Position numbers and translations under genes: made by a program. Below the pieces are notes generated by a model. The model had not been told where the DNA came from. It saw only the letters and a list, made by a program, of their open reading frames with translations, and searched no databases. DNA of 64,000 nt from Larinioides sclopetarius (taxonomy: Eukaryota), in contig CAXIEN010000093.1 in NCBI GenBank assembly GCA_964023285.1, positions 2,375,739-2,439,738 on the forward strand, in the 5' to 3' direction. Positions 8,299 to 57,473 of the stretch are shown piece after piece (the stretch's first letter is position 1; every line of letters begins with the position of its first letter).

Positions 8299-9660
8299 AC
8301 TTTCTTCTATAAGAAGAAAGGATTGGAATCGTGAAAACTTTCGACCTCCGTTTTTTGATGGATTTACATGTTTTGTGAGGTCCTGAACACGATTCCACAA
8401 TTTTTAAAAATTGTGTGTCTGTCTCTGTGCTGTGTCTAACACAAATTTTGTGGGCGCACTAGTACAAAAACTACTAGACAGAATTTAATGAAATTTCATA
8501 TTTAGTTGTATTTTAACATAACTTGGTGCTGATTAGATTTTGGCGTAGATCACTCAACAGGTGGCACTGCTATTCTGTTTCTTCACGATTTTTTGTATCC
8601 ACTCTACTTCAAAAACTAATAGGAGAAATTCGATGAAATTTTGTATTTAGTTTTGTCTTGACTTAAATTAACGTTCATAAAATTTTTGTGTAGATCGCTT
8701 GACAGGTGGCGCTGATATTTCAATTTTTACTTTCTCGTATAGAGAAAGTATAGTAATCGTCAAAAAATTCGAACTCGAGATTTTGGCGAACCTCCACGTT
8801 TTAGATCTCCTTGAGTCCGAAAAACACAATTTTGGAATTATGTCTGTCTGTGAACACGATAACTCAAAAACTATTATAGCTACGAAGCTGAAATTTGGTA
8901 TGTGGTCTTTTTACATGATTTGTAAGATTCTATCAAATTTTGGGCAACTTCCGCCTGTCTGTCTGTCCGCGTTCATGTGAACTCAATAACTCAAAAACTT
9001 ACATAGCTAGATAGATAAAATTTGATACACAGTTTTCTCATCATAAATGCCTGTCCGTATAAAATTTTGGGCCAAATCCGTCAAAGGGCTGACCGTCAGG
9101 CGGTCTGTATAACCCCATATTTGCAAAATTTATAGCTCTTAAACCCTTTGGTCTACATCTATAAAATTTAGTATGACTTATGCTAATAAAAAGTGTAAAC
9201 GTGTGTAAAGATTTCGCCCCATTCGATTAAGTAGAAGGGGTATAATTCATTAACCAAATTTATAATACGCATGCATGCGGAGAACGTCGTTTTGTGAGCA
9301 AATAAAAGGGTTGCTATTAGGAATTCCTAGGTGGTTTTTTCTTCCGCTTTGGTTCCGTTTTTCTCCCTTTTGGTGAATTCTGATAGCGATTGTGTTATTT
9401 TAATCACGTGAAAATGACGTTTCGCGCATAGAGCAGATTCAAAATTTTTGTCAGGTTTATAGTTCTCACAGTCGGTGGATTTTTTTTATCAACGATGGAG
9501 TATAGGAAACGGAGAATAATTCAGGGGAACTATACGAGAAAGTTTAGGGAAGGCCACTTCCACTGGTTTCATAAATTTTTCAATATTTGTTTTTAGTATA
9601 TATCGGTTTTAATCATATAATTATATAGAAGAAAGTTTTGTGATGGCCACATCATTGTAG
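8299..9660 (+). mobile_element. Family-1 hairpin-initiated repeat, copy a. An 836-bp sister element is nested inside it at 8731..9566.
   Basis: The 5' end is ctactttcttctataagaagaaagga..gaatcgtgaaaactttcgacctccgttttttgatgg. Two internal subrepeats of about 110 bp each end in gatcgct(c/t)aacaggtggcgctg. The element resumes with tttcataaatttttcaatatttgtttttagtatat...tatagaagaaagttttgtgatggccacatcattgtag at 9567..9660. Confidence 0.7.
8731..9566 (+). mobile_element. Family-2, a diverged sister of family-1, nested inside family-1 copy a.
   Basis: It starts with its own hairpin tttctcgtatagagaaagtatagtaatcgtc and a 5' region collinear with family-1 (gaactcgagattttggcgaacctccacgtttt). It ends ctatacgagaaagtttagggaaggccacttccactgg. 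Inside are gtctgtctgtgaac...ctcaaaaact...gaaatttggtatg modules, which also occur at 4735..4935. Confidence 0.5.
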
Positions 9661-9938
9661 TTTCGAATTGCTTTGGCATCCTTTAATTTTCATTCGTGGA
9701 ATTTTTTGTTTTAATTATGAACACTTATTTTTAAAGTAAATTTAATTTATTATTAATTCTTGATTTTTTTTAAATATTGATTGAATTAAGTTAGAAATTT
9801 CATGCATCACAAGTGTTTTTGACAGTTTTAATTAATGATTCTTGGTAAATACTATGTAAACTTTTATTTATATTTATCCTTTTTCTATATGTAATATCGA
9901 TAAAAATCCAATTGCATAATTCTTTAAAAAAATTTTAG

Positions 9939-10100
9939 GTTGCTCTTTATAGCCGTCAAGAACTTCATATTAGGTCTGCTTCTAATTTCCTTTTGTCTTA
10001 TGCTGCTTACCATGAGGAAACACGACCATATTTAGAAAAATATTTTGAATCGTGCACAAGATTGCCTTCAGATTGGATGGAAGTTGCTGATTTGTATCAG
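9939..10100 (+). CDS. TROVE-domain (Ro60/TEP1-family) gene, internal exon (54 codons).
   Basis: The acceptor is aaaaaattttag and the donor is CAG|GTGAAT. The open frame reads VALYSRQELHIRSASNFLLSYAAYHEETRPYLEKYFESCTRLPSDWMEVADLYQ. The order of the following exons matches the TROVE domain of Ro60. Confidence 0.55.
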
Positions 10101-10862
10101 GTGAATACAGTTTCATGTATAATTTTTTCTTAAGTAATAATTAAGATTTGTTTTCTGTGAAATTTCCATTAACATTTGTGTCTTCTTGAGAGACAAATGT
10201 ATGTTTCGAGTATGCCATGTTTAATTACTGCAATTACATGCCAGTAGTTTTTATCTTCAGTCTAGCTTGAATCTGAAAGCTAAATGGCGAATTCAATGAT
10301 TTCATTGATAAATTAATTATCAATTATTATTAATTTTAAAATATCAAAGTAGTGACACTAAATAATTGTATTGTGTTTGAGCTCATTTTGGAAAATGTTA
10401 TTTTCTTGTATGTTTGAATTGATGAATGACACATTTTAGTACAAAAGCAAATGCACTTACATCTGAGTGTACTGTACAAACATAAGTCATTAAGTCTGCT
10501 GCTCTTTTGTGTCGATTCCTTAGGTTTATTTCAAAATTGGAATTTTTTTTAGCCTTTTAATAGAGTTTTTGTGCATGAGTTGCTGAAGCAAATATTCATA
10601 TTCGAAATAATTATTCATAACAAATTATACAATGTGATATTCAAGGGTTTTTTAGAAATAAAAGTGTTTTTGTTGAATTTCTATTCGTAATTGGTGAATT
10701 TTTGTTTCACATTGAACTCTGAAACAAAGTTTTCTCATTTTGCTTCTGATTTCTTCAGTATCCAGTGTTTGTTTCTTATTGCATTTGTTTCGAAGTTTTA
10801 AGGCCTTTTATCAGTTTTTAGTTTGATATGTTTTCATGCTTAGATCAAATTCTTTTTTGTAG

Positions 10863-10959
10863 GTTTTTTCTGATTCAAGATTAAAAAACAGATCTCTGCC
10901 TTCTGCTCTAAAGAAAGTTATGGCCAAAACCTTTCCAAAATTTGATGAATATCAATTAG
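10863..10959 (+). CDS. TROVE gene exon (VFSDSRLKNRSLPSALKKVMAKTFPKFDEYQL), ending in phase 1.
   Basis: The acceptor is ttcttttttgtag and the donor is TTAG|GTATGT. The exon is in phase with its neighbours. Confidence 0.55.
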
Positions 10960-11099
10960 GTATGTTCTGAAACGCTACACTCCTGGGTTTCAAAATCAAT
11001 TGCAACTTTGACATATCTTAATTTTTATTTTATTTAAACAATAATAATTTTATATATTATGGCTGCTGTGTTTTTATTGATTCACATGACTTTCTATAG

Positions 11100-11217
11100 C
11101 TAAATACAATAGAGAGAAAAAAGCCTCCAGCACAAAAGGTTTCACTTTAAAACAGCTTATACGACTTTTACATTTGGATTCTCCTGCAAAGGAAATCATG
11201 TGCCTCCTTGGAAAAAA
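11100..11217 (+). CDS. TROVE gene exon (AKYNREKKASSTKGFTLKQLIRLLHLDSPAKEIMCLLGKK).
   Basis: The acceptor is tttctatag and the donor is AAAAA|GTATGT. The segment TKGFTLKQLIRLLHL aligns with the Ro60 segment NGWSHKDLLRLSHL as recalled from memory. Phase 1 in, phase 2 out, consistent with the flanking exons. Confidence 0.6.
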
Positions 11218-11418
11218 GTATGTGAGATTTTATAGTTTAAACTAAAATAATGTGAGATTTTCAGTTATCTTATTTAGTGATTTTCACTCATTAAAATAAA
11301 ATTTGAATATGTCTTCAGAGAAAATGAAAGTTTTCCATTTCTTTGTTGAGTTAACTGCATTGTATTTATTTTATATTCACTATTGCATATGAAATTTATT
11401 CTTAAAATGTGCATTTAG

Positions 11419-11576
11419 ATACCCAGAAACTGCAGAAGCCTTTCGAAAAAGTAAGTTGCCTGGAATATGGGATTCCAGAAGAGCTGGACAACGAATGAAA
11501 CTGCCTGTACCCGAAACATGGGAGACACAGATATCAGCTCATGGAAATAAACCTGAAATTTGGGAACAATTAATAG
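11419..11576 (+). CDS. TROVE gene exon (YPETAEAFRKSKLPGIWDSRRAGQRMKLPVPETWETQISAHGNKPEIWEQLI).
   Basis: The acceptor is gtgcatttag and the donor is ATAG|GTACAG. The frame is continuous only when spliced to the previous exon (aa+a gives K). Confidence 0.6.
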
Positions 11577-12233
11577 GTACAGCATTTGTTGTTAATTGAA
11601 CTAAATTTTCCCAATACAAAATGCAATTTTTTGATTTTTTTGTTTAATATTTAGTAGTTTTAGAAATTATAAATTTAATTAATTAAACAATTTCGTTATT
11701 ATTTAGTATAAGCTAATTATTATTAATATAAATAATGTCTTGTTATTTATTTTTTTTAGTGTCCAAAGATATTATTTCTTTCGATGTGTAATTTTTTTTA
11801 CATCAGATAAAAAGGATTCTGGAGATTAGATTGGATTGTATCATTTTTATTTTGGCATTAATATTATGTAATTGATAAATTAATCAAATTCTTCTTCAGT
11901 CCTGATAATAATTTAATAAAAATTGTATTTTTGGAGCTATTTGGCTGTCTTTAATTATATGAAAAGTATATGCTGCATTAATGAGTATTTTCAATTATAT
12001 ATGTCAAAAATATGCACACAGTAAGTTTCCTTCTTATTGTTTTTTTTCTTGTTTTAATACCTAATTCTTACTAGTAGTTGTTCCGTTTAGGCTCAGTAGA
12101 ACCATTAATAGTTTATAAAAACTATAATTCCTTTTCATTTAATAAGAATTAATTAATGTTAGAATTTTTCTGTGGTACTAGTTTTCACATTACAAAGCTT
12201 ATACAATTTTTTATCATGCTTTTCTCTATTTAG

Positions 12234-12343
12234 ACCATTCTAAACTTCCGTACATGGCTATGCTGCGCAATTTAAGAAACTTGATATTATCAGGCATTTC
12301 ACAAAAACATCATGACAAGGTGTTGAAGCATTTAAAAAGTAAA
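12234..12343 (+). CDS. TROVE gene exon (DHSKLPYMAMLRNLRNLILSGISQKHHDKVLKHLKSK).
   Basis: The acceptor is ttttctctatttag and the donor is a perfect GTAAGT. The motif LPYMAMLRNLRNL corresponds to the Ro60 motif PLTALLRNLGKM, recalled from memory. Confidence 0.65.
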
Positions 12344-15188
12344 GTAAGTGAACTATATTTAGTTTTTTTTCCATTTTGGATACTTTTGTGATTTCATATT
12401 TTTTAGGTAAAATCAAAAATTGATGACACAATATATTTCACTATGATTACTTAATTATTTAGCAAAATTCAATAGTAATTTTTGCACTTGTTTTGGCATT
12501 TATATCATTGTGACACTAGTTGCAGAATACCTGATTCGTTAGATTCCTTTGGTTGCTATTTAAACCAACTGCACGCACACTCATTGACCTCATCGTTAAT
12601 TTGTAACAATTGTCTCCATGGTGTTTTTTGAGTTCACCGAAGAAGTAGAAATCTCATGCAGACAGGGACTTCCAAACATGTCAATAAAAATGAACAATAT
12701 TTGAATTAAAAATTTAAATGAAGTATAAAGTGACAATTGAGTAGAGCCGTAATGAAGGTGGAACATCATTACGGCCCTTCTTTCTTTAAGAAATATAAAA
12801 AAAACATTGTGAATATATCCTTAAAAGTGTGATTTATTGTTAAACAGGATAGAGCGTTTTGATACTCCTTTTAGAGTGTACTGTTACTATTTATTTTACG
12901 ACCATACAACTGCAATTGATTATGCTAATTAGTTGATAAAATTTGCATAACTGGATTTAGAAAGTTAATTATAGGAAAAAGGAAATTATATGTGCAGTCA
13001 AACCTTGGTTGAAGAGATAAAATCTTCCTTAAAGGTCTATCTGCAAGTATTTTCAAAGGTCTATCTGCAAGTATTTTCTCTATAGGAGTTGCCTCAAAAT
13101 CAGTTAATCATTTCTTGATATCCATATAATTATGTATTTATTTTTTTACAACAGTGCTCTGTGCACTGATTGTTAAAAGGAAATTAGTGAAAACCATTAA
13201 TCTATAACTAAACAGGGTAGGCTACTGAGAAAATTAAATAGTACAATCTTTAAACTTGAAGGCATTAAACCGCCTACTAGAAAAATACAACTAGAATACT
13301 AGTTCAATATGAATGTTAGAAAAAAATCATTCGGTAGCAACTTGCTGATTCACCAACCATTTTCATCAGTTTATAATCACACAGCAGTCATTTCTCCATC
13401 TGTTTTCTGTGAGTGAAGGTCTGAAGATTATACAGTATCTATTTGTGAAACGTCACAATCCACAGGAATCATCATAGATTAATCGGCGAATCAAAGAGAG
13501 AGCTGTCAACGTCAGTGAGCTAAATCAGAATTTGTAAAAAGGTAAAGATAGCAGGGTTCAAATGTTGATCTGTTTGCAATTTGATCCAGAATCGCTGAAA
13601 TACTCAAAGTTAAGAAATATATTTAAACAACGAGAAAATAATTGGCGGGAAATTCAAAATATGGGTGCAATATGCAACATTTTGCCATGCCTATATAAAA
13701 AAGATTCGTGAGAAAACTTGAAAGCGATAAAGAAATGAGATATGTTTCTAAATTTTAATTGATTCTTATTCTGATTAAGTTGTTATTAAATGTTGGAGTG
13801 ACTGGAGGCAAAGCAGGCAATTACGTGTGATCCCAAAGGATGTACATTAAGGGGAAAAAATCGCTTAATAGACAGAACACACAGCCCCATGTCCTTGTGC
13901 CTTCTACTGTCTGGTGGTCAAAATGGGTGAATGGATATGGTTCAGCTTAATAGACATATAAACTCCACAAAAATAACAAATAAATTTTGTTTCGTGCCAA
14001 TAATTGTTTTTACTGGGTTAGATTTCCCATAGTGTCTGCCTTGGATGCAATAATCAGAAGGCATGTTTGCATTGAGGAAATAACAAGCTAATAAAATATA
14101 TAAAGCTTATAATGTTAATATATACAGTTTTCAAAATGATTTTTAACTGATCATATAAAATGCTGTTTTTAAATTGCTATGCATAGACATTGAATAAAAA
14201 GACCAGTGCATTTACATTTCCCTCTCTACAACTTGAGCTGTTTTGCTCAGTAATGAATAAAAGCATTTGCTATTTCTCTCTGACTCTCTCAGCATAAATT
14301 ATGGGAAAATGAAGACTCCAGATTTTTTCCAAAAACAGTAATTCTGAGTAAATGATTACATTCACATTGTTTGATTTTTACATAATTACAGATAGTAGAT
14401 ACATAAAATATATTGTTTCTACTTTTATATATATGGATAGTTTACTTAGATGGCCTGAAATTCGTTAACAGAGGAATAGACTTCAGTGTTTGGTAAAATA
14501 ATGGGAAATGAATGTTTGGACAGAATTTATACTGCAATCTTAAAACGAAGTTATATATATTTAAAATCGATTTGTTAAATATGTTATTTCAATTTCAGTG
14601 AGGCAAATATGTATATTTAAATATATCTGAAGTTTAAAAATTCTCACCACGATATTAAGTTATATTCACAGATAGAACTTGCATATATTTGTGGGTAAAA
14701 TTTGTTTGACATTTAGAATACAGACATTAATTATACAATTAAGAAAAAAGGTGGAGGTGCCATCATATTGATGTCTTGCCCCATTAGTAGATTTACATCT
14801 GGTCGCCCCTAATTATATATGAAATGTCATTTTTGCTTACTATGTGACTCTTGATACTTTTAAAATTTACTTATTTTCTGTAATCTGTAGCAATCTTTTA
14901 AATGAAATCTTTAAAAATAACCACTGCGACAAGTCTCAGATGATATGGTTTGTCTACTTTACTATAAATAAGACATTACTTCCCCAACTATAGATCTCCT
15001 CATTTGAAATTATTGGCATATCACTATATACTTTGTATATTGTAGTACTGATTATTAACATTTAGTTTCTATTACATAATTGTTTCATTAATGTATTTAA
15101 TTGCTGACAAATGCTTGCATTTTTAAGTAACAAATATTATACAATAATATCAGTAATTAGTATAATGCATAATTTACTTTAAATATAG

Positions 15189-38287: not shown

Positions 38288-40387
38288 TTTCCTAACAAAA
38301 CGTTTTTGAGGAAAGGAGCGATGGACTGATAAGAGTTGACATTGTTCATTCAAGATCGAAAATTTAGAAAAAGTTTTCATGGTAAAATTCGTTATGGTTT
38401 ATAAATATAAGTTGATTAGTTATGACCTTATTCATCCTTTTTAACTAAATAAGTTCTTTTTATTAAATGTAAGTAAAAAAAAGAGTTTATTAAAAACAAT
38501 TTAGACGTTTTTCCTATTTAATATAAAATCTAAATGTTCGGACACTGTTATGTCCAACTCATCGCGATGGGCACAAAAGCCGAAAGAAATAACTATTTTT
38601 TAAATTTTTTATGTTATCAAGTGAGAAATATTTCTGTTTGGACAAAAATGAAAAAGATATAGGGAAGCAAAGGAATTTTGATTTCTTAATCTATTTTATG
38701 TAGAACACATGTAATGTTATTTAATCTGACACTATTACTATCCATAAACTAATATTTTTCAAATCAAATTTTTTTATAATTTTATGGAATTTAACAAAGA
38801 TAAAATATGCTGAATATCCAGGCATACCCCGACAATCATAGTTAAGATTAAATATATTGAATATCCAGGGATACTTATAAATAAAATTTATAATTTAAAT
38901 TGCAGTTCGTCGATATCAGCTTTCTTTGAAACGAGATAGATCAAGACTATTTTCGCTTTTTCTTACCCCTTAATTACCATCATGACCGTATCTTCATTGT
39001 AAAAAGAGAAAAGAAAGTTCCAGGGCAGTCATTTTAGTCTTTCAGGAGAAATTTTAAAAAATGTGAAAATCCGAAGGTTTCCAGTAGGGTTGTTACGCTT
39101 AACATGTTTAAAACACAGCATATAAAACATTGTTTAAAACACCTTTATTATTTTGTAAATATTTCTTCCAACAACAGTAATGTAGCACTACAATACTACA
39201 TTACTGTTTGTTTTTAAAAAATGAAAAAAAAAATTATTCCCCTCCCCCTTTTTTATTAAAAGTATAATTTGACTTTATTTTAAAATATTCATATCCAAAA
39301 ATAACAATCAATTTTCATTGCTATTTTGCTTAATATTTTCTTTCAATAACTTATTTTAATTCTTTTAATAAATAATTTATTTTAATAATTATCTTGATGC
39401 AATTACATGCTGCTGGTTTACGAAAAATGTTTTCTAGTTTCAGCTTTGTACAAAACAAAACTAGAAATCGGTTAGGTGTTGATAAGGCTGAAAGACTTGT
39501 AACTGTTCTTAAATCACTTAATAATGAAATGTGTTTGTATTTTGTATGCAATAAATGGCTAATTATTAATTAAAATTAAGCATTTATTATTTAGATTTTT
39601 TCCTGTTTTTAAAAAAAAATAAAATAAAGAAAGTGTTTTTATTTATTTTCGCGTACTTTAATCGAAATTGTGTTGTTCATGGGAGAGAAAAAAAACCGTT
39701 TAAAAAAAGTTTTTTGTTTTTTACCAACCCTGGTACCAGATACTTTTGATCAGAGGATAAAGCATAGAATTAAAAGCCTTAGTTAAAATATGTTATACTT
39801 TGTATCATCTTCACAGTTTTTTAAAAGGGGGCCTCAAAATAATTGCGCCTTGTGTTTAATCTTTTCAAAACCCGCCACATGCTGATTGTGTAATAAAACT
39901 GAACTGTAATCTCAAAAAAGTAAAAACCGCGAAATGGGAAGAAGGGTGGGAGGAGTCATTCTGAGAAAATCAGGTCCGGAATATACGTTTTGGAATCGGG
40001 AGGGGAGGCGTCACAGCTTAGGGGTTAAGATACTAGCTTCAGATAGGGTTACCTGACGTATGGCTATCTACATTGGTGACTGCTGCTTGATAATATTTTC
40101 ACCCTTATGGCGAGATGTTGGAAAATAAAAGGATTTTTTTTCCTCTTTGACATATGTACGGGTTTTTAATTTTTATCATTTTTCCAAAGCTTAAGTTTGG
40201 GGAGGATCGCTAATATTTGGAAATATACGGTATTTAGAAAGGGAAAAGAGACTGAAACTAAGAGCTCTAGTGAAAGAAATAGATTTCTTAAAACAAAATA
40301 AAATGTTCCTCCAAAATAACACATAAGCCAAAGAAAATGAAGAAGCAAGGGATTGACCTAATGAGGTTGAAAATTCAAAGAACATTG

Positions 40388-41915: not shown

Positions 41916-42744
41916 GGAATGTTATTGAGTCAGCCTGTTTTTTACACATGATCAATTGTATGTCGCAGCAAGTAGAATTTAATCATTCGATGATTCGAGA
42001 TTTTTATATTTTCGAATTACAACGGTGAAAGGCATTTAGCAAACTGAAAGAGCTTTTACAATAAACATCGTCTACACAGAAGTTTTGAATCATTAAATTC
42101 ATTTTCAAACTATTTTATGTTCCCCTTTTTTGTTTCAATAAAAAATATATATAAAAGAATACGAAGCTCACACACATATTCTTTATTTCATTTTTGGTAT
42201 TAATTTATTTAAATTTTATGTAAATTGAAGAATATAGGTAAATTAACCGTGCAGCCTTGATGAAACCTCCCAGTATAGCAACAAGAAGAATCCAAGAAAA
42301 TGGCATAAAACGTGTTATTGTTTTTTAAATATGGCTTATTCCAATCTATACTTTATTTTTCCTATCTTTTGTATTTTTCAAATAACTCGTACAAGCTTTC
42401 TGCTGACGTATTAGAGCAAAATAAAAAAATATATGTATGCTATGATTGTAGAGGTATACTTCTCTATAACCTCAATAACGTTCAAATATTTTAAATAGTA
42501 CCACTACAACGACACTACGTGCTTTAGTAGAGCATGTAAAGTTCTTTTCTGATTAACAATCAAAAGGAATATACCTTTGCCTTCTGGCTTGCCAACGGGA
42601 ATTTTTTGTTCTTTATTGTTATTAAAAATATTGTGTGTTGCTTGTTTTTCATTCTCAAAATAATGTTGTGTATATATAGTATTGTTTATTTACTTTTGAA
42701 AAGGGTAAAATGAATACTGTTAAATAATTTGGACAGTTTGAAGC

Positions 42745-44982
42745 CAGTGGCGTAGCCAGGGGGGGTGCTCGAGCACCCCCTAAGATCTTTAGCGGCGCCC
42801 CTTAAGCACCGCAACATCCCCGTAACTTATTCCTTCCAATTCTGTAAAATATTTAAAAAAAAAAACGTTTTTCGCTTCAACTGTTCATTTATTGTTATTT
42901 TTGCTCCCAAGAGTTTTTTAGCTTTGTATATTTTATAAATACTATATATAAATAAATATTTTTGAATTTGAATCGCATATATCTTTCAAATATATAACTT
43001 TCAGAATGTTCATAAAATAAAATTTTATTCGTATTGTAAGAGAAAAGAACAGGCACACAGTGTATATTTACTATCAGTAAAAAAAGTTGGAAAAAAAACT
43101 TTGATAAAAAATATCCTTCTTCAGAATATAAAAAATAAATGAAACACATGGAAACGCTCAAACCGGAAATGAATTTGTATCATTCAAAAAGAATGTAAAA
43201 ATAAAAATAAAAACCCAGATCATGAGGAATATTCAATGAACTGTTCTGTACTATGTTGCTTCTTCTCTTAAAAATCGTAGAAAAATTTGATCGAAGATAT
43301 AGCTAATATGTTTCTTCGGATCTTAAGTTATTCAAGGTACGTATTCTTTCCACTAGAATCATGTGATGTTATTTAACACACGTTCACTTTTATTCCATTT
43401 TTTAAAAAAATTTCAACACTTTTCCATTTTATTTTTAACTTGAGTCTTTGTTTTTTAAAAATAATGATCTATCTGCGTAGCCTTATTTTCAGTTTGATTT
43501 TACCCTCTATGCGAGTTATAAACTAAACTTCCTTTTTAAAAAAATTTACTGAGATCTGTTGTAACTATCTCTAGAACATTCTAAATGTGAAAAATCAACA
43601 AATAGTTATTCTTAATAATCCCCTTTTTAGAGAAGGTTTGTTCTTAAAGGTATACAAGTATGCAGCTATTTAATTCTTGGAATGGATAGCATGGAAGAAA
43701 AAGAGGATTCATTACGTTTCAATACTGATTTTTTTCAAAGCTTGTTCTTAGTTTTTTTACGTGAATATCAAATATATATGTTTTCAATTAATTTTTGAAG
43801 TATTAATATTGTAACATATAAATATAGTGTCGATATTTCTACTTGCATCAACAAATATTTAATTGAATTATAATGTAAATAGATTAGCGTAATGACATTT
43901 AGAATCTTTTGTAACGATAAGAAACATTACATGTTTTTTTATCAAAATAAATTTACATCAGAAAAATTTAAGTTAATTATTGTGTGTTAAAACAATTCTT
44001 ATCAATGGTTTTAATCAAACTTTTTTAACAATATTTATGTTTCTGACTTCATACAATTTTGATTTCATTTTTTTAAAAAAAGAAATGAATAAACTTTAGA
44101 GAAATTAATTAAAATTTGATAAGAAAAATTTAGTTTGGTTACAATTTATTGAAATCATTAATTAAAAAAAACAGAACTTTAAACAAATCTTTCTTAAAAA
44201 ATATATAATTTTCATTGTAATAGAGTTTTTAACCTCCCAGAGGGCGCTTACGCAAATTTTACGAAATATTGTTAACGTAGTACTTAATATATCATGTTAT
44301 TTTACGAAAGTAGATGCACCTTTTATTTGATAAATTGTCTGTATTTATTAGCTTAATAATAAACGACGATTTTATATATAAAAGTTTTTAATTAAATGTA
44401 TAAAATAACATTATAAATATGCAATCCTATGCGCAATTCAAGTATCTTTGTCTAACACTTGCCCGCGGGAGGTATAAAAACGATTAGCGTTAACGCTTTT
44501 CCTTCGCGGGGGCATAAAAGTTTTATTTGCAAGAAAGCAATTGCATATTTTCTTCATTTCATAGGGAAAAAATAGAACAAGAAGTAAATTCAAGAAAATC
44601 AAGCCAAATAAAGAAAAGAGAAAGCTCATATGCAATATATAGTAGATATCGAATAGTGATTTGTTTATCAGAGGTTAAAGAGAATATGAATAAATTTGTA
44701 AAGAAAAAAAATGACTACAGACTATTAAGTAATAATGTTTTACTAAATATTTCATTTTGTAATTATGTTATTATTAAAAGATAGCATTGAGTTAATATCG
44801 AAATGTTAAATAAAACCAATAAATAACAAAATGTTAAATGAAATTGTAGGTTTATTATAATATTTAAGCATAATTTTTTTAGGAAATGGACAAATTTTTA
44901 AATGATTCATTTCCTTTTACTTGATCCCGCCATCATCCTTTTCTTGTGCACCCCCCTTCAAAAATTTCTGGCTACGCCCCTG
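42745..44982. mobile_element. Non-autonomous hAT-superfamily element (2.24 kb) with an 8-bp TSD, TTTGAAGC.
   Basis: The TIR is CAGTGGCGTAGCCAG at the 5' end and CTGGCTACGCCCCTG at the 3' end. An identical 8-bp direct repeat tttgaagc abuts both ends (42737..42744 and 44983..44990). The interior is AT-rich and has no transposase ORF. Confidence 0.7.
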
Positions 44983-47900
44983 TTTGAAGCATTAGATTGA
45001 GGAAATCTAAATTTTAAAAAAAAATGCATTTAGATGCATTTTGTTGCATATATAAGTATGAATGACTTCATTGTTTTCTTGAATTCACTAAATTTTGTAC
45101 ATGGAGATTGCATCCTCGCAAATGTTTTCTCATTTGATTTAGTAATTCAATCTAACTTTATCCGTCCCTAATTCATAAAACATTTACAAATCAGACCTCA
45201 CTCATCATTGATTTTCTGATCGAATCATCAGTGTGATTGCCACTGAAGAAAGGTCCATATCTAAGTTGGGCTGAAACACTCAAAAACGTGTGTTCTTGAA
45301 GACAGTATTCTATGTACAATTTTTACTGCACAGCTGTGACGTTTTTCATTCGATTAATTGAAATTAATTGATGTAGGTAAAAAGAAAAACACACTTATCA
45401 TCTGTTAGACACTTGATTTGCACTAATCAGTCTCTAAAACAAAAAGTAACTTGTGAATATTTTATATATTTTTTGCATAATGTTACCTTTTTAATATCAT
45501 CAATCTGCATAGAAAATTGAGAATATTCAGATTTGTAGTCTAAATTAATAGCAAGTATATTACTGAATAAATAAATTTATATTGAATTGGGTTCTTTTTC
45601 AATTATAAATATGACTAATGCATTTCTATATAATCTTGATTATACAGAAATAGTTGTTTTCAAACTTGTCATTTCCAAATTGTCTTTTTTTCTTTTTTGA
45701 GTTAGCATTTATAACCTAATGTAAAGGAGAAACCAATAGCAATATAAATAATCAGAATGATTGAAATGAATTTTACTGACTTCAGAGAGAAATTGTGCTA
45801 ACACAAGAAATTTGTTTTAAAATTAATTTTAGCGTGGGAATTATATTTATATATGACAACAGAATGGTTTTAAGGACAGTTATCTTCCTTTTTATTGTGA
45901 ATTTTTTCACTTTTAAAATTCCATTCTGAGACATAAGTTTCTTTTATGAAATCACATTTTTATAATGCATTTTTTCCAATTTCTGCTATGAGCAAGTTTC
46001 AAACTTTTATTATGAACGAATCGTATCATAATTCTGTTATCTCTAGAATATTTGTTTATGTATTTTATCTTTGTATTATAATATTTATACTTTCTTCCTG
46101 ATTTATGGTAGTAAGGAGTATTAATTTTATTCATTCTGCTTTTATTCAATCTGTGGGTGCATGTGGGGAAAAGAAAGAGAGAGAAGCTTGACAAGTTACA
46201 GAAAAATTATAAGATTCTTGCCTAGAAAGTCTTCATTTACTTTGATTGGGAAGAGTGCAAAATATTAATGAAAAAGTCATTACTTTTGTATAAAATTTCT
46301 AACATTAGAAAAGATGTATAAATATGTCACAAAATACTCACATTAAGATAGATTATTGTACCCATAGCTACAATGTGATTTGGAAAATGAAAGTGTATTC
46401 TTTGGAAAACGTTTATAAAAGTTTCGTTAGATTTTTACTAATTAATAGTGAAGATGAATCTTGACATTTTTGCTTGTAGTTTCATCCATAGCTTCCCAAT
46501 GAAATGCCATTCAAATATTGTTTCTAGATTCAAGCATTTCTTTCAATGTTATATGAATGCCTTGTTTGATTTTTTGTCCTAATTTTTCTTATATTTTTTA
46601 AATATTCAAACAAAGGTTTGTTTTTGAGTAAAGATGACCCAGAAGTTAAGAGATACTTTAAAACTTATTAATATGCAAGTAGGGGAAAAAATCCAGACGT
46701 AGTTTTGCAAAAATGGCGGAAATGAAATTGGAATTTTTTCATTGCAAATCCGTAATACATTCATAATATATTTCGTAATTTAAATACTGATGGTTTGATA
46801 GAGCATAATCAATATAAATGTGTTTTGATGCTATGCTTAAGTGTTATCGTTTTTGATAGCTGAAGCTCCAAAATGGATGAGGGCACATTAATTGATTCTT
46901 AGTCCTTATTCCGATCAATATCTTATACTATTTAACCCATTGCCATCAATAACTTCAGATCTATCTTGTAAAGTATACTTACAGATGGATCTGCAGTTTT
47001 TGATCGGTGGCATAGCTAGTATAAATGGTGCTTGAGGCTTAATAAGATTTGTTCTCTCTGTCCCTTCATCATAATTTAAGAAGTGATACTAAATACATAT
47101 TTTGTCTCCACAGTGCCATTAAGACTGGCCCCAAGAGAGCACCTGTTCCATCTTCACTCTCACCCCCCAATCACTATGTTACCAATAAATTTTGGTTAGT
47201 AAAAAAAAGTCATATTTTTATAACTTCTGTGCAAAAAGCATTTCTTTCTCTCTCTCTCTTTTTTCATTTGTGGATTATTGATTTTGAAATTGTTCCTCTT
47301 TTTAGAATCATGGTGTATATTTCGTAGAAATGTTCTCCATTGTTATAATGAAAACTAGGGTAATTTTCATTGTTTTATAGGTTTCTTTTATATTTCTATC
47401 CCTCGTCTCCTGTTAAAGTTTAAGTATAAACTTTTGTTGATTTTTTTAAATTATGCTTTAAAGCAATGTATCTTTTTTCTTCCTTTATATATGTTATAGC
47501 TTCAGTAAAAGTATGAAACGACTCTTGTCACTTTTGGACGTCTAAGCTTGATATGAAAACTTGTAACATTGCAGATTTCAAAAAAATTATCGAGCCCATT
47601 TCCAAATTTTAGCTAGTTTTGTATTTTTTCAATAATTAAAAAAAATTTCTCTAAAAAATGTGATTACCTTTTCTTTTTAATATATTTTCTTTTAGTATTT
47701 TCAAAAAAAGAAAAAAATCATAAATACTAAAAGTGAAATTGGTCAGGTTTGTGTGGGAAATTTGGGTGGGGTTGAAAAATTCTGCAAAGTGTCAAGCTCT
47801 TGTCCAAGAAGTTCAAAATTCACACCTCAATGGGATTACAACTAATAAAATCATGGCTGGTTGATTAAATAATTTAGTAAGTTTAATTTTAGAGTAGATT

Positions 47901-49289: not shown

Positions 49290-49757
49290 TCACAAAAGCT
49301 GCAACGGAATAGCAACGCCACCTGTTGAGTGATTTACGACAAACTCTCATTAATCAGCATTAGTTATTGCTAAGGTAAAACTAAATGTAAAATTTCATGA
49401 AGTTCTGCCCAGTAGTTTTTCGTCTAGAGTGGTCACAAAATTTCACAAAAATTGTGGGAGAAACAAAATATAAAAAGCGGAATAGCAACGCCACCTCTCC
49501 AGCTATCTCCATCAAAATCTAATCAGTATTAAGTTATGTTAAGGTGCAAGCAAATATAAAATTTCATGAAATTCCGTCAAGTCCTTTTTGCGCTACCGCG
49601 GCCACAAGTTTTGTGACACTCACAGACATTTTCCAAAAATAGTCAAATAATGTTCAGAACTTCACAAAACGTATAAATCCATAAAAAAAAACGGAAGTCA
49701 AAAATTATCAAGATTTCCCAATATTTTCTTCTCATATATATCTTATAAGAAAGTAAA
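49290..49757 (-). mobile_element. Family-1 repeat, copy f. Reverse orientation, more diverged, and it lacks the canonical 3' tail.
   Basis: The reverse complement shows the hairpin end actttcttataagatatatatgagaag and both subrepeats (caacaggtggcgttgctattccg twice). Confidence 0.55.
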
Positions 49758-50384: not shown

Positions 50385-50708
50385 TTATGCAATAATCACA
50401 ATATTATAAAATAATATGAATGCGGTGCTCAAGAAGAAATGGAGTAATATCCCAAATGATGCTTTTGCAGATGTACCACTTGAGAAGCAATCGAGATCTG
50501 TTTTAAATACTGTTATAATTGATCTATTGTTCATATTAACACATATAGCTTCACGTAAGTCATGTAGATAAGTTTCTTCGCATATCATTTCTTCACACCG
50601 AGTTTCATATTCATATTCTTTTATCCATTCCCATATCCAAGAAAGTTCACAGTTACAATTTAGTTGATTTCCAGTTAGCTTCAAATGCTTGAGGTGCTTT
50701 TCTGGTAC
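50385..50708 (-). CDS. LRR protein gene, terminal exon. Encodes the LRRCT cysteine cap and a C-terminal GPI-signal-like hydrophobic tail, ending at a stop codon.
   Basis: A minus-strand acceptor tttttttttctttttacacag precedes GTACCAGAAAAG. The translation VPEKHLKHLKLTGNQLNCNCELSWIWEWIKEYEYETRCEE...C contains the NxLxCxC...W LRRCT pattern. It then reads FSSGTSAKAS plus SFGILLHFFLSTAFILFYNIVIIA and a stop, which is a small-residue omega region followed by a hydrophobic C-terminus with no cytoplasmic tail. The exon is phase 0, consistent with both candidate exon-2 donors. Confidence 0.65.
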   Translation of the reverse strand, partial: VPEKHLKHLKLTGNQLNCNCELSWIWEWIKEYEYETRCEEMICEETYLHDLREAICVNMNNRSIITVFKTDLDCFSSGTSAKASFGILLHFFLSTAFILFYNIVIIA

Positions 50709-52109
50709 CTGTGTAAAAAGAAAAAAAAATTATGAGTAGTTATAAATTTAGTAAAAACAGAGTATATCAAACTTATTGGAAGTCAACTGGCTTGTTTAAT
50801 GGCATAACATAATAAACGTGTTTAGTATAATAAACGAACAATCTGTCATATGCATGCTGTTTTCATATTTCAGAGATAAATATAACATGGCACATTTATA
50901 ATACTGTTTGGTTCTTGCATGCCTTAAGAATTGTGGAAGCCCTTTCACAACATGGCATCATGGAACTTGATTTTCACCATAATTAAGTTTATGATTAAGA
51001 GAAATCTCTGCTCAACATAAATCATGATAAAGGCTGTCTAGAACACAAAATATCCTATTAAAAGCTGTTAACTCACTAAGAGAAGATTTCCATGATATGA
51101 CTGCAGAAGGTATCGAAAGAACTACTCTTTAAAAAAAGATATTGACTTGTTGAATTTGGTAAAAATTATCTTTAGAATGCTAAGTGTGATTTAAGAGATG
51201 AGAGTTTGGCTGAAAATAAAGTTAAGCACCTAATTATAAAAATGTAAAGAAAGCTATGAATTTATCACAGCTGCTGTGTATTTCTGTATGATAATATACT
51301 ACTTAAAAAAAATTACAAACTATGCAAAAGAACTTCATAGTTTTTTAGTCCTGTTTTCAAAATTTATATACAAAAAAATAATCTGCACATTTGGGCAGGC
51401 AGTTTAAAATAAAATTTTTTAAAACAATAGGTACATAATAAAAGTGCATAATAAACGTAAAATAAGGAAATGCTGCTAAAGATACAAAAGAAAAGATATC
51501 TTGTCTAAAGAAAAATGTTTTTCTTTTAATGATTTTCAATAGTGATGACAAAGATGTCATTATTTTACCATTTTAATACACTTCTAGTTAAAATTTCTTT
51601 GATAAAGATATTTTTCTTCATTATGAAAATAACATGTGTTTAGTTATTGGATCCCCCCATTTTTTGAACTAGCTAATTGTTTGCACAATACAAATTCACA
51701 TAACATGCTATTTTTTACTATCCTCATTATCGTGATTCATGCTTAGTTATAGTTATGTAAATAATTATGTATTAATATTAAAATAAATGTCACCATCAGA
51801 TCATAGATCCTATATTAAGTTGTAAAGATAATTAAAAAATGAATATATCTTCTTGATATAGTTTTGTTTAGATTTCACGGTATAAGGAAGTATAAAATCC
51901 ATTATTACTAAGCTCATTTTTATCCCATACAAAAGAGCTCCTAGTAAGTTTTCTAACTTAATTAGCATGCTATATTTTAATGAATATATGCACGAAGCTT
52001 CAGCTGTTTTCTGAAATAATTTTTTTTCTAATATTAATTCATTGAATCGTTTATCTGTTTATTTATATTTAGAATTTTATTTACATATCGTTTGAAATAA
52101 AAAAATTAA

Positions 52110-53214
52110 GGATGTAACGAATATTCGGCAATTATTCGGTATTCGGCTTTTTGCCAAATATTTGGCTGCCGAATACTAAGCAAATATTTAGCTGAATATT
52201 TTCAAGATGGTAATTTTTTGAAAGTATTAAATAATAAAAACATTTCAGAATTATATATTTCATTTCATTCATTTTTTCTTAAAAAAATCTAGCATTTACT
52301 CAGTTTTAAGTTTACATATATATATAATTGACATATTTTAACATATATTTAAAATTATGAAATATAGTATATAGCACATAAATATATCTAATAATTTTAT
52401 ATGTTTCTTATGACTGTAAAGCCTACAATTATATTAACCAAGAGATATTTTGAGGAGTGCTAAATATATATTCAGTGAAATAAAATCAAGGTATTTTTAA
52501 ATATGTATATTTAACAATGATTATATTGGAGAATTACATTTCAATATATTGATTTACAAAAAAATTCCTAACATTCAGTTTTAAAGGGGAGAGTTAGCAT
52601 TATTAAGTTAAATAACTTTTAGTCCTGTAACTGTAGATGTGGTTTATAAACCATATATATAATAACGTACTCGAAGTTGAAAGGTCAAAGTAAAGGAAAG
52701 ATGTTTGACTGAGTGGTAAATAGAAGTGAAGAAGAATTCGAATATGTTAAAGGAAATGACTTAAAATTTTGACTTGGAGAAAAGCGATTTTTCTATATTT
52801 AAAGGAAAAGGCACGAAGGATGACAAACAAATTTTTATTTTGTTTAGATTAATAATTTTTCTAAAAAAATTTTAAAATCTTAAATATATAATCTAATTAA
52901 TGTATAGGTAAAATTATGCTATTATAATTTATTTAGATTCGGTGAAGTCACATTGTCTTATTCTTATAATTAAAGTGTTTAAAATATATTTAAAAAATAC
53001 ATCAAGGTGCTAATATTTAATAAAACCAATAAAAAAATGAAAAATAACTTTATTAATCATTGATTTTTTATTTAAAATTTCAGGAATATTTCATTTGCCA
53101 TAAAAAAAGGGAAGTGTTTTTAAAAAATAGATATTCGGCCTGGTTTTTGGCCGAATATTCGGTATTCGATTATTCGCGTGCACGCGCGGCCCCAAATCAC
53201 TATTCGTTACATCC
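52110..53214. mobile_element. A 1.1-kb non-autonomous TIR element (TIR GGATGTAACGAATATTCGG), copy 1. It sits in LRR gene intron 2, about 45 bp from the donor.
   Basis: Perfect 14-bp inverted ends ggatgtaacgaata / tattcgttacatcc. Subterminal ccgaatattcgg palindromic motifs are repeated at both ends. There is no transposase ORF. Confidence 0.6.
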
Positions 53215-53258
53215 CTATAAAAAATTATCAAAATATTTGTAGTAAAAATCTACATTAC

Positions 53259-54050
53259 CTCTCTTTCTGTTGTGTATAACTTTTCAAGTGTCTGCAACTT
53301 GTTGTTTATAAATGCTGTCGTAAAATTCTTTACTTCTTTCATATTTTCAAAAACTTTTTGGGGAAATCTAGTGATGTTTGAATTTCGAATATTCAAGTTT
53401 AGAGTATGACTTCGAATGGCAGAAAAAACTGACTCATCCAAATATCTCAAATTATCACCTTCTAAGATGATAGATTTTAATGATTTAGGAAGGTCTCCAT
53501 TGAAAATTCCATCCAGTCCATTTTCTTGAACGTGCAAATGTATTTCATGTATTCCTTGGTTTCCATGAAACATTTGAGATATGTTGGTGCTTCTTCCTGT
53601 GTAAGTATCAAGTTCAATCTTTTTTAATGCTGTTAATTGATGGAAAGTATCTTGATCAATTTCTTGTAATTTTAAATTTTTTATGAACAGTTCCTGCAAT
53701 CTTTCCATGTTCGTAAAACTGTTGTTTGATAGTTTTTGAATTGGATTCTTTTGCAAATATAAGCATTTTAATTGTTGCAAGTTTGACCATATGTTGTTAT
53801 GTGTATTCAACAGTAGATTATTAGATAGATCCAAAATCTGAATTTTCTTCAGTTGTTCCAGCGTTTCTTGTTCCACTGTTTGTATGCCGTTGGAACTCAA
53901 GTTCAACATTAAAATGTTGCACGACGACAGCATTGGGATTATTTTCAAGCTCGTGTTTGCTAAATTGAGTTCCTCAAGGCTATTTGGTAAGTTATTAGCC
54001 ACCCATGCTGGAAGTTCCTTTATTGAATTGTGAGATAGATCCAGAGTCAT
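53259..54050 (-). CDS. LRR protein gene, exon 2 (further LRRs). The donor is ambiguous: GTAATG at 53258, or alternatively GTAAAG at 53333.
   Basis: A minus-strand acceptor ttttttttctcgttttcag lies immediately before ATGACTCTGGAT at 54050, and the frame is phase-compatible with exon 1. The ORF 53250..54050 is entirely LRR (LDLSHNSIKELP..., LDLSNNLLL...). Two candidate phase-0 donors lie near the ORF end. Confidence 0.7.
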
Positions 54051-54878
54051 CTGAAAACGAGAAAAAAAATCAATCTATGGAAATAATTCATAATTTTAAA
54101 AATAAATCTATGAAATCTATGGGAGTGCCTATTTTTGTATTTAGTCAATATTTAATTTTTACTGAAATTGAAGAAAAAGGGAGGGAGTGGCGGAATTCTC
54201 CATTAAGGAAAGAAAACTGACTCTGTCAAGGCAATTTTTACGCAAAGCAAAACTCACGTTTTTCTATCGAAAAACAGCTTACTTTATTTATAAATCTGAA
54301 TTGCACTTAGAAAACAAAAAAACTATTTTTAAATTAACGAGTCTAAATATTTCAAACAATTATAATTTTTTTTATATTAATAGTTTCTGAGTTATTTATT
54401 GCAAGTAATTTAAAGATTAAAAATTGCAATAAAGTCTGAATAAAAAATCATCTTAAATAATTGCTTTAAACTAACTTGGAAATTAAAGAGAGGTTCAGAC
54501 CTGCCAAGATTGTAATACCTCAACTTAATCATTCCATTTTATTGATTGTTAATTTAACAAGCGGTTTTATATTTTAATTTGTTTAAAGAGAGCAAATTAG
54601 TATGTTTTTAATACCGATAGGGTAATTTAGTTTTATTTGAGACAGTATTTTACGATAATCAGAGTTCTTAAAAAATCCTACACTGTGTTATTTTTAAATC
54701 CCGTCCTAATAAACTATATCCAATTCTTAAAGTTTGAATTTGTTCTATAGTTTTCATCCTTTGTTAATTTGATAACTATTTTGCTATGATTCCCTTCTCC
54801 CAAAGGTTCAGTGTTTTTTTTTTCTTCAAGTTTAGATATATTTGTGAGGCTGCTAAAATTGAAATCAACTATACTTAC

Positions 54879-57473
54879 TAGATTTGGTAGTTGCAATTCT
54901 TCCGCTGAGCTAGGTAGAATCAGTCTGTTACGGGAAAGACTCAGGTATCGTAAACTTTGCAGTGATGTAATGCTGCTGAAATTAAGCGATTCTATTTCAT
55001 TTCCAGTTAAATCAAGGTACTGCAATGTATCTTTGATATGGAATATGGAATCTTCAGGGAATTCTTCTAAGTTATTGAATGATAAATCTAGTTGTTCGAT
55101 TGTTGTAGCTTTAAAAATATCTCCTAGTATCTGTTCCATCTCATTGTAAGCCAATGAAAGTATTCTTAATTGCTTTTGTCTCTCAAATAAATTTTCTGGT
55201 AGATTGTTTAAGTTATTTTTTGATAAATCTAATATTTGTATAGATCGTAGACCTTTAAATTCCTCTTCCTCTATTATTTCAATCTCGTTATTTGAAAGGA
55301 TTAGAGTCTGTAGATGAGCCAGATTTGTAAATGCTTGGGTAGTTAAATTTACCAATTTATTATGGCTTAAATCTAGGACTGTAAGTGACAGCCTTATTGG
55401 ATCTAAGTAGTTGGTATCCAAATATGATATATTGTTATAGCTAAAATTGAGATGCTTTATGTTGCTTGAAGTATGAATAACTGTGTAATTTCCTGTTAAA
55501 TTCTGAATGTTGTTATGATCTACATCTATTCTTAAAGTGGACAGTCTTCCTACTTGGTTAAAAGCTTCTAAGTTGAAAGAAGATAGCTCATTATATCCCA
55601 AATTTATTAGTTGAATGTTTGGCAAATTTTGGAATGCTTCATTATCTATAGTTTCAATGGAATTCCCTTCTAGACGAATAATCATTACGGAGTCTAAATC
55701 GAGAAAAGCGGATTTTTGTATGGTCTCAATTAAGTTATCATTCAGTTGCAAATAGATCAGATTTCTCAAATTTCGAAAGATGTGGGATTTTAATACGCTA
55801 ATTTTGTTAAATGCTATTTTCAGATAAGCAAGGTTTGGATTATGCATATCATTTACTATATTCATATCTAGATCCTTCAATTCATTATGATTTAAATTTA
55901 AATACCTTAAATTTTGCGACGACGAAAACGAATTTTGTGGCAAATATTGGATACGATTGCTACTCGCATCTAAATACTCCAACTTTGATAGAGAATTTAA
56001 TGCTTTGTATGGGAATATTGATATCTTTAAAGCATTATGCAAAACAAGTTTTTCTAATGAATGCTTTACATCTCTAAAAGTGGTATTTCCGATTTTTGTT
56101 ATGGCATTGTGGGATAAATCTAACGATTTTAATCCGCTCAATCTGTGAAATGCTCCATTTTCAATAACTTTAATCGAACTTTTTGTCAGGGATAGTTTTT
56201 CCATGGAAGGTCCGACGTTTTGCAAATATTCCGAGTTGATAACTGATGTTTGTTTATTGAATGATAACTCTCTTATGTTTGGTAAATATTTCATGCTTTC
56301 TTGTGACAAGCCGTTCATCTTCGACCCAGAAATATCGAGGTATTTTAAAGGATTTCCGCAGTACTTAATGTCTTCCGGTGTAACTTCCTTTATAGAATTT
56401 CCAGCCAGCGATAATTTAGTTAATTTCGTCAATGGTAAAATAGGGAATTCTTTTATGTTATTATAGCTTAAATCTAAAACTTGTAATGAATGCGTTGAAC
56501 TAAAAAATGCATTTTTTGTTATTTCTGATATTGAACAGTAAGGAATGTAAACTTCAGTTGTATTGGCTGTCAGGAAAGTGTCATTTACTGTTGTAAGTGG
56601 ATTGCCTTTCAGAAAGATACGATTTACTTGATTGAAAAGTCTGAAACTTTCTGCTGTTAATTCTTTTATAAGATTGTGTTCGAGATGCAGCTCATCTAAA
56701 TATATGCGACTTCTTATTTCCCTTCCTTCAGATATAGTAGAAATCAAATTTTCGTTTAAGTTTACGATTTTAATGTTTTTAAAACTAGCCAATGCATTCA
56801 ATGGTATTTGCTGAAGCTGATTACCCATTAGATTTATATGCTTTAAATTATTCAATCCTCCATGAAAAGTTATATCGTCAATTGAAATTATAGAATTGTA
56901 TGCCAGATTCAAAAATTCTAAGGATATCATATTCCGAAATGCGTCACTTTGAACCTGCATTAGAGCGTTTTGAGATAAATCTAGAACCTTTAGACTTGTA
57001 CCCAAATTGCGAAAATCATCTGTGTGTAAGAAAGCAATTTTGTTATCCGCCAAATTTAAATTGCTTAGTTTCTCTAAATTCTGCATTGCTTCTTTTGGTA
57101 TTCGTATTAAGTTATTGTGTCTTAAATCTAGAATAGATAATGTTTTCTCGAGTCCTGCCAAAGCATTGGGTGGTAAATCTGTGAGCAGATTATTGTTAAT
57201 CTGAAGTTTCCAGAGTCCGGTTCCATTTAAACTATTATCCTCTAGAAAACGCAATTTGTTATCTTTAAGACTCATAATGTAAATTGCAGAATTATTGATT
57301 TGAGATGGAACAGTCATTAATGGTATATTATGGCAGCATACAGAACCCAAATCTGGACCTCCATTGGAGCATGTGCATAAAGGGTTGAATGAGCATGGCC
57401 GATGTTGTTCTTTCAATCGGGAATCCACATTTGTGAGGAAAAGTAGGAGACAGAGTTTATCAAAGAATTTCAT
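54879..57473 (-). CDS. LRR protein gene, exon 1 (865 codons). Encodes an N-terminal signal peptide, an LRRNT cysteine cap and a long run of leucine-rich repeats. The architecture is chaoptin-like.
   Basis: The ORF 54714..57473 starts with M and a hydrophobic leader (MKFFDKLCLLLFLTNV). The motif CSFNPLCTCSNGGPDLGSVCC is LRRNT-like. It is followed by about 35 repeats of LxxLxLxxNxI/L. An in-frame GTAAGT donor (plus-strand acttac at about 54873-54878) ends the exon in phase 0 after the codon for L in ...ELQLPNL. The exon length of 2595 nt is a multiple of 3, consistent with the ORF frame. Confidence 0.8.

Follow-up and report, generated by a model that had tools for sequence, protein, structure and literature searches.

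Transposons of the hAT superfamily carry terminal inverted repeats (TIRs) with the hallmark start YARNG, and Hermes, an Ac-family element of Musca domestica, pairs a CAG TIR start with an 8-bp target-site duplication (TSD). TIR length across the superfamily ranges from 10 to 25 bp (PMC3942097), and Tip, the third major hAT group, has plant, cnidarian and insect members and is defined phylogenetically by transposases that group with Tip100, apart from Ac and Buster (Rossato et al. 2014, PMC3942097). Tip100 itself, the founder of the family, from Ipomoea purpurea, has the TIR CAGGGGCGGAG and 8-bp TSDs, 100 bp per end being sufficient for its transposition, and the plant enzyme works with such 100-bp ends in fish (medaka) embryos (PMC12511174); its right end, as the reverse complement, reads CAGGGGCGGAGCCAGGATTAACCATGCGGGGGCC (PMC12511174, supplementary figure). 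Another Tip-family member, BuT2, has the TIR CAGTGCTGCCAA (PMC3942097), and the leading transposable-element superfamily of Tetragnatha spiders by abundance is hAT, with hAT-Tip100 listed first among the commonest families (bioRxiv 10.1101/2024.01.03.574070). Here we describe, in a 64-kb stretch of the Larinioides sclopetarius genome (contig CAXIEN010000093.1; the whole analysed stretch is called the window), a 2238-bp insertion at 42745-44982 that we read, with a probability of roughly 0.9, as one non-autonomous hAT DNA transposon of the lineage that shares Tip100 ends ('Tip', hAT-Tip100 in RepeatMasker). Given the abundance of hAT-Tip100 in Tetragnatha, such an element is to be expected in a spider; it is a further member of a kind already known, with nothing out of the ordinary for a spider.

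Structure and boundaries of the insertion

The element has no coding content: a filler of about 2.1 kb, unrelated and AT-rich, separates its two short GC-rich ends, each of which has a 15-nt TIR and then a G-run/TGC motif (coordinates in Table 1). The insertion was read directly from the sequence, with boundaries of the form …GGACAG TTTGAAGC / CAGTGGCGTAGCCAG GGGGGGTGCTCGAGCACCCCC … GTGCACCCCCC TTCAAAAATTT CTGGCTACGCCCCTG / TTTGAAGC ATTAGATTG…, where slashes mark the element ends. Both features expected of hAT ends are present: 15-nt TIRs that start CAGTG and CAGGG and agree at 14 of 15 positions, the sole mismatch being T/G at position 4, and a TSD whose two copies match at 8 of 8 positions. 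The initial annotation had proposed just such a 15-bp TIR with a CAG(T/G)G start and a perfect 8-bp TSD, and both stood on re-reading; the 3' text that it quoted, CCCCTGGCTACGCCCCTG, is absent from the sequence, which has ATTTCTGGCTACGCCCCTG there, and its CCCCTGGCTACG was a misreading of TTTCTGGCTACG that leaves the 15-nt TIR unaffected.

Inward of the TIRs, the two ends are laid out differently. The inverted repeat ends at 15 nt and resumes past an 11-nt spacer that is present on the right side only, with GGGGGGTGC(T/A)C found at both element ends, and the 5' subterminal region holds a second GCACC motif (CTTAAGCACCGCA at 42801-42813). The first 100 bp have 58% GC and the last 70 bp 50%, versus 23.7% in the interior, which bears out the earlier description of an AT-rich interior, and the ends retain 8 CpGs. 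Because Tip100 transposes with 100 bp per end, the GC-rich 5' subterminal region (42745-42835) is presumed to be a cis-acting end. Within the interior, the GC palindrome noted initially near 44461-44513 does exist, although its pairing is imperfect and the hairpin only modestly stable (z = -2.3), and it has no counterpart among the related loci described below. The pre-insertion (empty) site is expected to read GGACAGTTTGAAGCATTAGATTG, with a single TTTGAAGC.

Statistically, these ends stand out from their surroundings. A scan of the window for a 15-nt inverted pair with at most one mismatch, within 6 kb and abutted by a perfect 8-bp direct repeat, returned this element and one artefact, against a mean of 0.03 in 100 first-order Markov shuffles; the artefact is a palindromic 8-mer, TTGATCAA, within a longer inverted repeat (arms 3662-3859 and 7475-7672). 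The 15-mer pattern, with up to three mismatches, has 3 matches in the window versus 0.13 expected, and none of 100 shuffles reached 3. By itself TTTGAAGC is common (7 copies in the window versus 4.6 expected), and the weight rests on its place at both boundaries. Moreover, an nhmmer end profile built from the first 34 nt of 105 metagenome ends picked exactly two termini in the 64 kb, those of this element (E 4e-4 and 8e-4), covering positions 1-32 at the 3' end (E 4e-4).

Coding capacity was searched for at several levels. The longest open reading frame (ORF) in the element has 88 amino acids (aa), a six-frame Pfam search of the element gave nothing credible (DUF7038 alone, at E 0.09 and below its cut-off), and an Rfam search gave no match inside it. 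Using hAT C-termini and complete related transposases as tblastn queries, no in-element match was better than E = 2, and for the related transposases against the whole window the best match (E = 0.08) lies outside the element; the earlier statement that it contains no transposase is thus upheld. The interior shows no similarity to the rest of the window or to any related locus, only the termini being shared. With ends and TSD intact and no transposase coding capacity, the element is non-autonomous in the manner of Ds. The label of miniature inverted-repeat transposable element (MITE) was considered and rejected, since those typically measure <800 bp versus 2238 bp here, and the insertion was filed as a non-autonomous hAT element instead.

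Relatives with the same ends

Scanning metagenome contigs with the terminal 16-mer CAGNGGCGTAGCCAGG yielded at least 120 stretches, and more than 100 animal-type metagenome contigs carry it at element ends. Most of the contigs listed have 38-48% GC and animal genes (innexin, plectin repeats, fibrinogen_C, protein kinases), and the few GC-rich, bacterial-looking contigs among them are chance matches. The 12 nt upstream of the 16-mer differ from contig to contig, as they should at element ends, and downstream there typically follow AATTT…, a short spacer and a G-run ('AATTT…GGGGG'), as at the right end of the window element. At position 4, 76 of the matches listed have T and 24 have G, the two letters that the window element has there. 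As a control, viral contigs gave 46 chance matches, which lie in GC-rich, coding-like DNA, mostly have C at position 4 and share no common continuation.

Pairing of + and - ends within contigs, at up to three mismatches, gave 110 candidate pairings. From these came at least 23 TSD-flanked elements (the window copy and the complete element L178 included) of 144-3845 bp, most of the relatives measuring 144-790 bp, and in each the abutting repeat is exactly 8 bp long; repeats of other lengths (2, 4 and 5 bp) occurred in five cases in total among the 110. A further complete element, L181, is the 24th with an 8-bp TSD, or the 23rd besides the window copy. One candidate for an autonomous element, L007 (Ga0126335_1001163, 2385-11942), was rejected: it is a near-perfect 9.5-kb palindrome with mirrored ORFs and without transposase, the flank outside both of its end motifs is identical, and the contig probably reflects a misassembly or else a large inverted duplication. 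A full-text literature search with the TIR strings and their reverse complements found only unrelated primer matches.

The difference between the two ends recurs in the family. A 5' layout, in which a GC-rich palindrome begins no more than about 10 nt past the TIR, is seen in L181 (directly, as GGGGGCAATTGCCCC after a G-run), in L178 (GGAGCA…TGCTCC after a short spacer) and in the 368-bp element L051, whose 5' end has GGTGCTCGAGCACCCCC in common with the window element. A 3' layout of TIR, AT spacer and G-run is seen in L178, L181, L051, most metagenome termini and Tip100, and L051 has GAGCACCCCC, spacer and TIR at its 3' end in common with the window. Because the 5'-type end lies on the left of the window element and the 3'-type end on the right, the window's + strand is the transposase-sense orientation. 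The conserved asymmetry is of modest specialist interest.

A hAT transposase beside the shared terminus

Among the 120 loci listed for the 16-mer, ORFs of at least 100 aa are host genes only, with no transposase. A synthetic profile of the C-terminal hAT motif recovered true PF05699 fragments, and tblastn with these found L057. Here a frame with one internal stop encodes the dimerisation domain of a hAT C-terminus (PF05699, 31.2 bits versus a cut-off of 21.4), and its end lies some 500 bp inward of the terminus CAGTGGCGTAGCCAGG. The first contigs fetched with the hAT profile as possible relatives were rejected, being plant-like and having a different terminus, CAGGGCCGGCCC. Homologues of L057 led to five more loci (L178-L182), and in every one the terminus lies 440-700 bp past the stop codon. 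Across five independent contigs with a transposase beside this terminus, the hAT dimerisation domain is always encoded, three having DUF4371 as well and two of these an RNase-H-like domain, leaving two with the dimerisation domain only. DUF4371, a FAM200/ZBED5 RNase-like domain and Dimer_Tnp_hAT are seen in L178, L181 and L179, a near-copy of L178, and L180 and L182 have Dimer_Tnp_hAT. L178 and L181 also contain a DETTD motif. A hAT transposase is thus seen in related elements that have these ends, whereas the window copy lacks one.

Two of these elements are complete. L178 (Ga0049105_1024614:232-4076) has the TIR CAGTGGCGTAGCTAG and a perfect 8-bp TSD, CTTCTAAG, and L181 (ERZ24986310 ctg16210l:2774-6999) has the TIR core CAGTGGCGTCGCTAGG and a perfect 8-bp TSD, ATTACACT; their proteins are 49% identical over 315 aa. 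Both resemble the window element in TIR core, perfect 8-bp TSDs and 5'/3' end asymmetry, and differ from it in their transposase ORFs (interrupted by frameshifts or introns), in their non-spider hosts of 33-46% GC and in sharing no interior with it. They are autonomous-type relatives of the window element, not its actual mobilising partner.

L178 is itself nested in the reverse-transcriptase ORF (…LLFADDIALL…) of a non-LTR retrotransposon (a long interspersed nuclear element, LINE), with flanks at 101-301 and 4077-4180.

A separate AT-rich DUF4371/hAT element, present at two or more insertion sites, came from JGI Ga0501xxx contigs (L167-L176; for example L171, 851-2815) and is probably from a plant or a plant-associated sample. 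The 3' terminus of the L171 type ends …ATCGGGCCGGCCCTG, giving the TIR CAGGGCCGGCCCGAT, and DUF4371-type hAT elements therefore do not all have the Tip100 terminus.

Elsewhere in the window, a site at 47005-47038 (+), CGGTGGCATAGCTAGTATAAATGGTGCTTGAGGC, matches the L178 5' end CAGTGGCGTAGCTAGTAT at 16 of 18 positions and echoes the GGTGCTCGAG of the window element. It departs from the family ends by CG-to-CA and CG-to-TG differences (CGGTGGCATAGCTAG; CTTGAG versus CTCGAG in the window element), and it may be what decay has left of the solo 5' end of another, older member of the family; a search for a partner 3' end came up empty, and the end profile does not detect the site.

Comparison with Tip100 and other hAT elements

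The window ends match those of Tip100 closely. The published Tip100 TIR agrees with the window TIR at 10 of 11 positions, and over the 15 nt of the window's 3' TIR the extended right end of Tip100 (CAGGGGCGGAGCCAGG versus CAGGGGCGTAGCCAGA) agrees at 14, with T at position 9 of the window TIR versus G in Tip100; the window's 5' TIR agrees with the Tip100 terminus CAGGGGCGGAGCCAG at 13 of 15. A terminus of the Tip100 type is therefore common, nearly letter for letter, to a plant element and to many animal elements. The likeness extends to the layout of the window's 3' end, where Tip100 likewise has the TIR, an AT-rich spacer of about 11 nt and a G-run, to the 8-bp TSDs, and to the cis-requirements of Tip100, which fall within about 100 bp per end. 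In other respects the two elements differ: Tip100 is an autonomous plant element of 3.8-3.9 kb with an 808-aa transposase, whereas the window element is a non-coding 2.2-kb element of a spider.

Evolutionarily, the transposases of the relatives point the same way. The C-termini of L057 and L178 are 36-39% identical to that of Tip100 over 67 aa, and a family C-terminal profile of 12 sequences aligned with the Tip100 transposase (its last 250 aa being used) over 169 columns, with an hhalign probability of 98.1% (E 1e-13). In the PDB, the best match of the family profile was Hermes, at E = 0.05 only and at the dimerisation motif (…SAASERTFS…), and a search with the single L178 transposase sequence found no match. 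The similarity to Hermes, which belongs to a different hAT family, is marginal, and the termini are unrelated beyond CAG.

Non-autonomous hAT elements such as the Drosophila MITEs derived from BuT2 are likewise non-coding, with an AT-rich interior between conserved ends and with 8-bp TSDs, and they depend on a transposase supplied in trans (PMC3942097). These MITEs differ in measuring 532-927 bp and in having the BuT2 TIR (PMC3942097), the window element being 2.2 kb long with unrelated filler.

By themselves, a CAG(T/G)G start and an 8-bp TSD do not exclude other superfamilies, because others also make 8-bp TSDs. We call the element a hAT because relatives with the same ends give 8-bp TSDs, adjoin a hAT transposase and match the ends of Tip100, and the initial assignment to non-autonomous hAT elements is thereby borne out (23 further elements with 8-bp TSDs, a hAT transposase beside the terminus, the Tip100 end match). 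Practically, the end sequences can serve for finding the whole family, the autonomous partner and polymorphic insertions.

Mechanistically, we infer by analogy that this copy was mobilised in trans by cut-and-paste chemistry. A transposase encoded at another genomic locus and resembling that of the autonomous relatives (DUF4371 / RNase-H-like DDE / hAT-dimerisation type) would bind the TIRs and subterminal motifs and excise the element by double-strand cuts; the element would then integrate at a staggered 8-bp cut, the repair of which would yield the TTTGAAGC duplication.

Target-site preference

The target of Ac-type elements is reportedly nTnnnnAn and that of Buster-type elements nnnTAnnn, a distinction said to go back to Arensburger and colleagues in 2011. 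Among the 23 TSDs tabulated here, that of the window included, 13 have T as their second letter and 10 have A as their seventh (50% when symmetrised); the TSD of L181 adds a fourteenth T at position 2, and TA occupies positions 4-5 in 1 of the 24. Judged from these letters, this small sample of 24 TSDs looks Ac-like and clearly not Buster-like. It offers a first look at the target pattern of the Tip100 lineage, a point left open by Rossato et al. 2014, who stated that the target preference of the Tip family was unstudied (PMC3942097).

Alternative readings

Several observations weigh against placing the element in a Tip100-ended hAT lineage. The relatives were gathered by the 16-mer, so its conservation among them is by construction, and the independent evidence is accordingly the TSD length, the downstream motif, the T/G polymorphism and the transposase. 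DUF4371 is found in Buster-type proteins too, and the choice of Tip over Ac or Buster derives from end identity to Tip100 and from C-terminal similarity, with the Tip100 sequences taken by optical character recognition from a supplementary PDF. Both the BuT2 TIR CAGTGCTGCCAA and the plant-like DUF4371 ends CAGGGCCGGCCC differ from the window ends, so that the shared terminus marks a Tip100-like sub-lineage, not the whole Tip family. The window TSD fits nTnnnnAn at position 2 only, and just one copy of the element lies in the 64-kb window, the end profile finding no second.

Accepting a hAT origin, the element could be an old, fixed and immobile relic whose interior is unrelated DNA caught between a 5' and a 3' end, not a deletion derivative, a reading that we consider a real possibility at somewhat less than even odds. 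The interior bears no trace of a transposase or of any relative's internal sequence, its GC content of 23.7% is like that of the surrounding genome, and neither a second nor an autonomous copy lies within the 64 kb. The 11-nt spacer by which the two ends differ can also be listed on this side, although it is a feature of the family and not decay. Against a relic speak the TSD, still 8/8, and the TIR, which differs only at position 4, where the family varies between T and G and which need not be decay; the ends keep their 8 CpGs, whereas the nearby end-like site at 47005 shows differences of the CpG-decay type. With TSD and TIR intact, the relatively recent insertion proposed in the initial annotation is plausible, and the CpGs still present in the ends would also suit a fairly young copy, but none of these observations, the decay at 47005 included, gives a date.

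Going further, the 16-nt terminus CAG(T/G)GGCG(T/G)AGCCAGG and its asymmetric layout might be a recognition site that has stayed nearly unchanged from the plant Tip100 to spiders and other invertebrates, a proposal that we regard as doubtful. If it were true, the spider copy could still be mobile, or could be cross-mobilised by a heterologous transposase of the Tip100 clade, and the trans-kingdom identity of the ends would imply that their recognition is under extreme constraint or that they were transferred horizontally.

It is very improbable that the element belongs to another superfamily with TSDs of about 8 bp (P, Mutator/MULE, Zisupton, Merlin) and that its CAG start is a coincidence. 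P, Mutator and Zisupton do make TSDs of about 8 bp, TSD length and a short TIR alone are not diagnostic, and the window copy has no transposase to decide the matter. Yet all five contigs in which a transposase adjoins the terminus encode the hAT dimerisation domain, two complete elements have 8-bp TSDs, the ends match those of Tip100, an experimentally active hAT element, and a search of the 113 + 18 ORFs of the related loci turned up neither THAP/P nor MULE nor any other transposase domain. Least probable of all is that no mobile element exists here, only a chance inverted and direct repeat in AT-rich DNA (which is rich in short repeats, with 369 inverted pairs in 3 kb, and in which TTTGAAGC is common) or an assembly artefact, since a GC-rich 15-mer expected 0.13 times and a joint TIR and TSD expected 0.03 times per window would have to coincide at the very two sites that an independent end profile selects in 64 kb, and the same end bounds at least 23 TSD-flanked elements elsewhere.

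Genomic context and other features of the window

The window has about 29% GC throughout. The Tip100-ended element lies about 5.4 kb downstream of a chaoptin-like gene with leucine-rich repeats (LRRs), and is most likely intergenic, between this gene and a TROVE-domain gene convergent with it. The ORFs of the chaoptin-like gene comprise a 919-aa exon (54714-57473), one of 266 aa (53250-54050) and a last one (50385-50684) with a hydrophobic C-terminal tail. As routine repeat annotation, our reading marks 2.2 kb of the DNA between the two genes as transposon-derived.

Table 1 Features of the insertion and neighbouring genes (window positions; strand given where assigned).
Feature	Position	Strand	Evidence or remark
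Left TSD copy TTTGAAGC	42737-42744		8/8 match to 44983-44990
5' TIR CAGTGGCGTAGCCAG	42745-42759	+	nhmmer end profile E 8e-4
GC-rich 5' subterminal region, 58% GC, 6 CpG	42745-42835	+	composition
G-run, then perfect 20-nt palindrome GGGGGTGCTCGAGCACCCCC (42761-42780), abutting TIR	42759-42780	+	'5'-end type' layout
AT-rich non-coding interior, ~24% GC	42836-44919		no transposase relation
Imperfect GC-rich hairpin GCCCGCGGGAGG ... CCTTCGCGGGGGC	44461-44513	+	DNA fold -12.5 kcal/mol, z = -2.3
3' subterminal motif: 11-nt AT spacer AAATTTTTGAA (44957-44967), then GGGGGGTGCAC (44946-44956)	44946-44967	-	'3'-end type' layout
3' TIR CAGGGGCGTAGCCAG	44968-44982	-	reverse complement; nhmmer end profile E 4e-4
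Right TSD copy TTTGAAGC	44983-44990		8/8 match to left copy
TROVE-domain gene (Ro60/TEP1-like), three exons	9939-10130, 11393-11596, 12182-12388	+	Pfam TROVE positions 67-345, E down to 4e-21
Chaoptin-like LRR gene	50385-57473	-	best match 82%, Nephila pilipes chaoptin, then other spiders

Three further features were seen in the window. By eye, an ORF at 39376-39570 (+), …HAAGLRKMFSSFSFVQNKTRNRLGVDKAERLV…, resembles the dimerisation motif of hAT elements in the Ac/Charlie style (RNRL), in decayed form, but a Pfam search of it gave nothing at E <= 10. The 198-nt inverted repeat that gave rise to the scan artefact (3662-3859 / 7475-7672, 87% complementary) bounds about 4 kb with inner ORFs of at most 87 aa; its arms open with TA/CAGTTGTCAAC… and TA/CAGTCGTTAAC…, letters that point to a putative element of the Tc1/mariner type with long TIRs and a TA target. 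Finally, the 16-mer AGGTGGCGTTGCTATT occurs twice on the - strand, at 49308-49323 and 49481-49496, as a local repeat with a distance of 173 bp.

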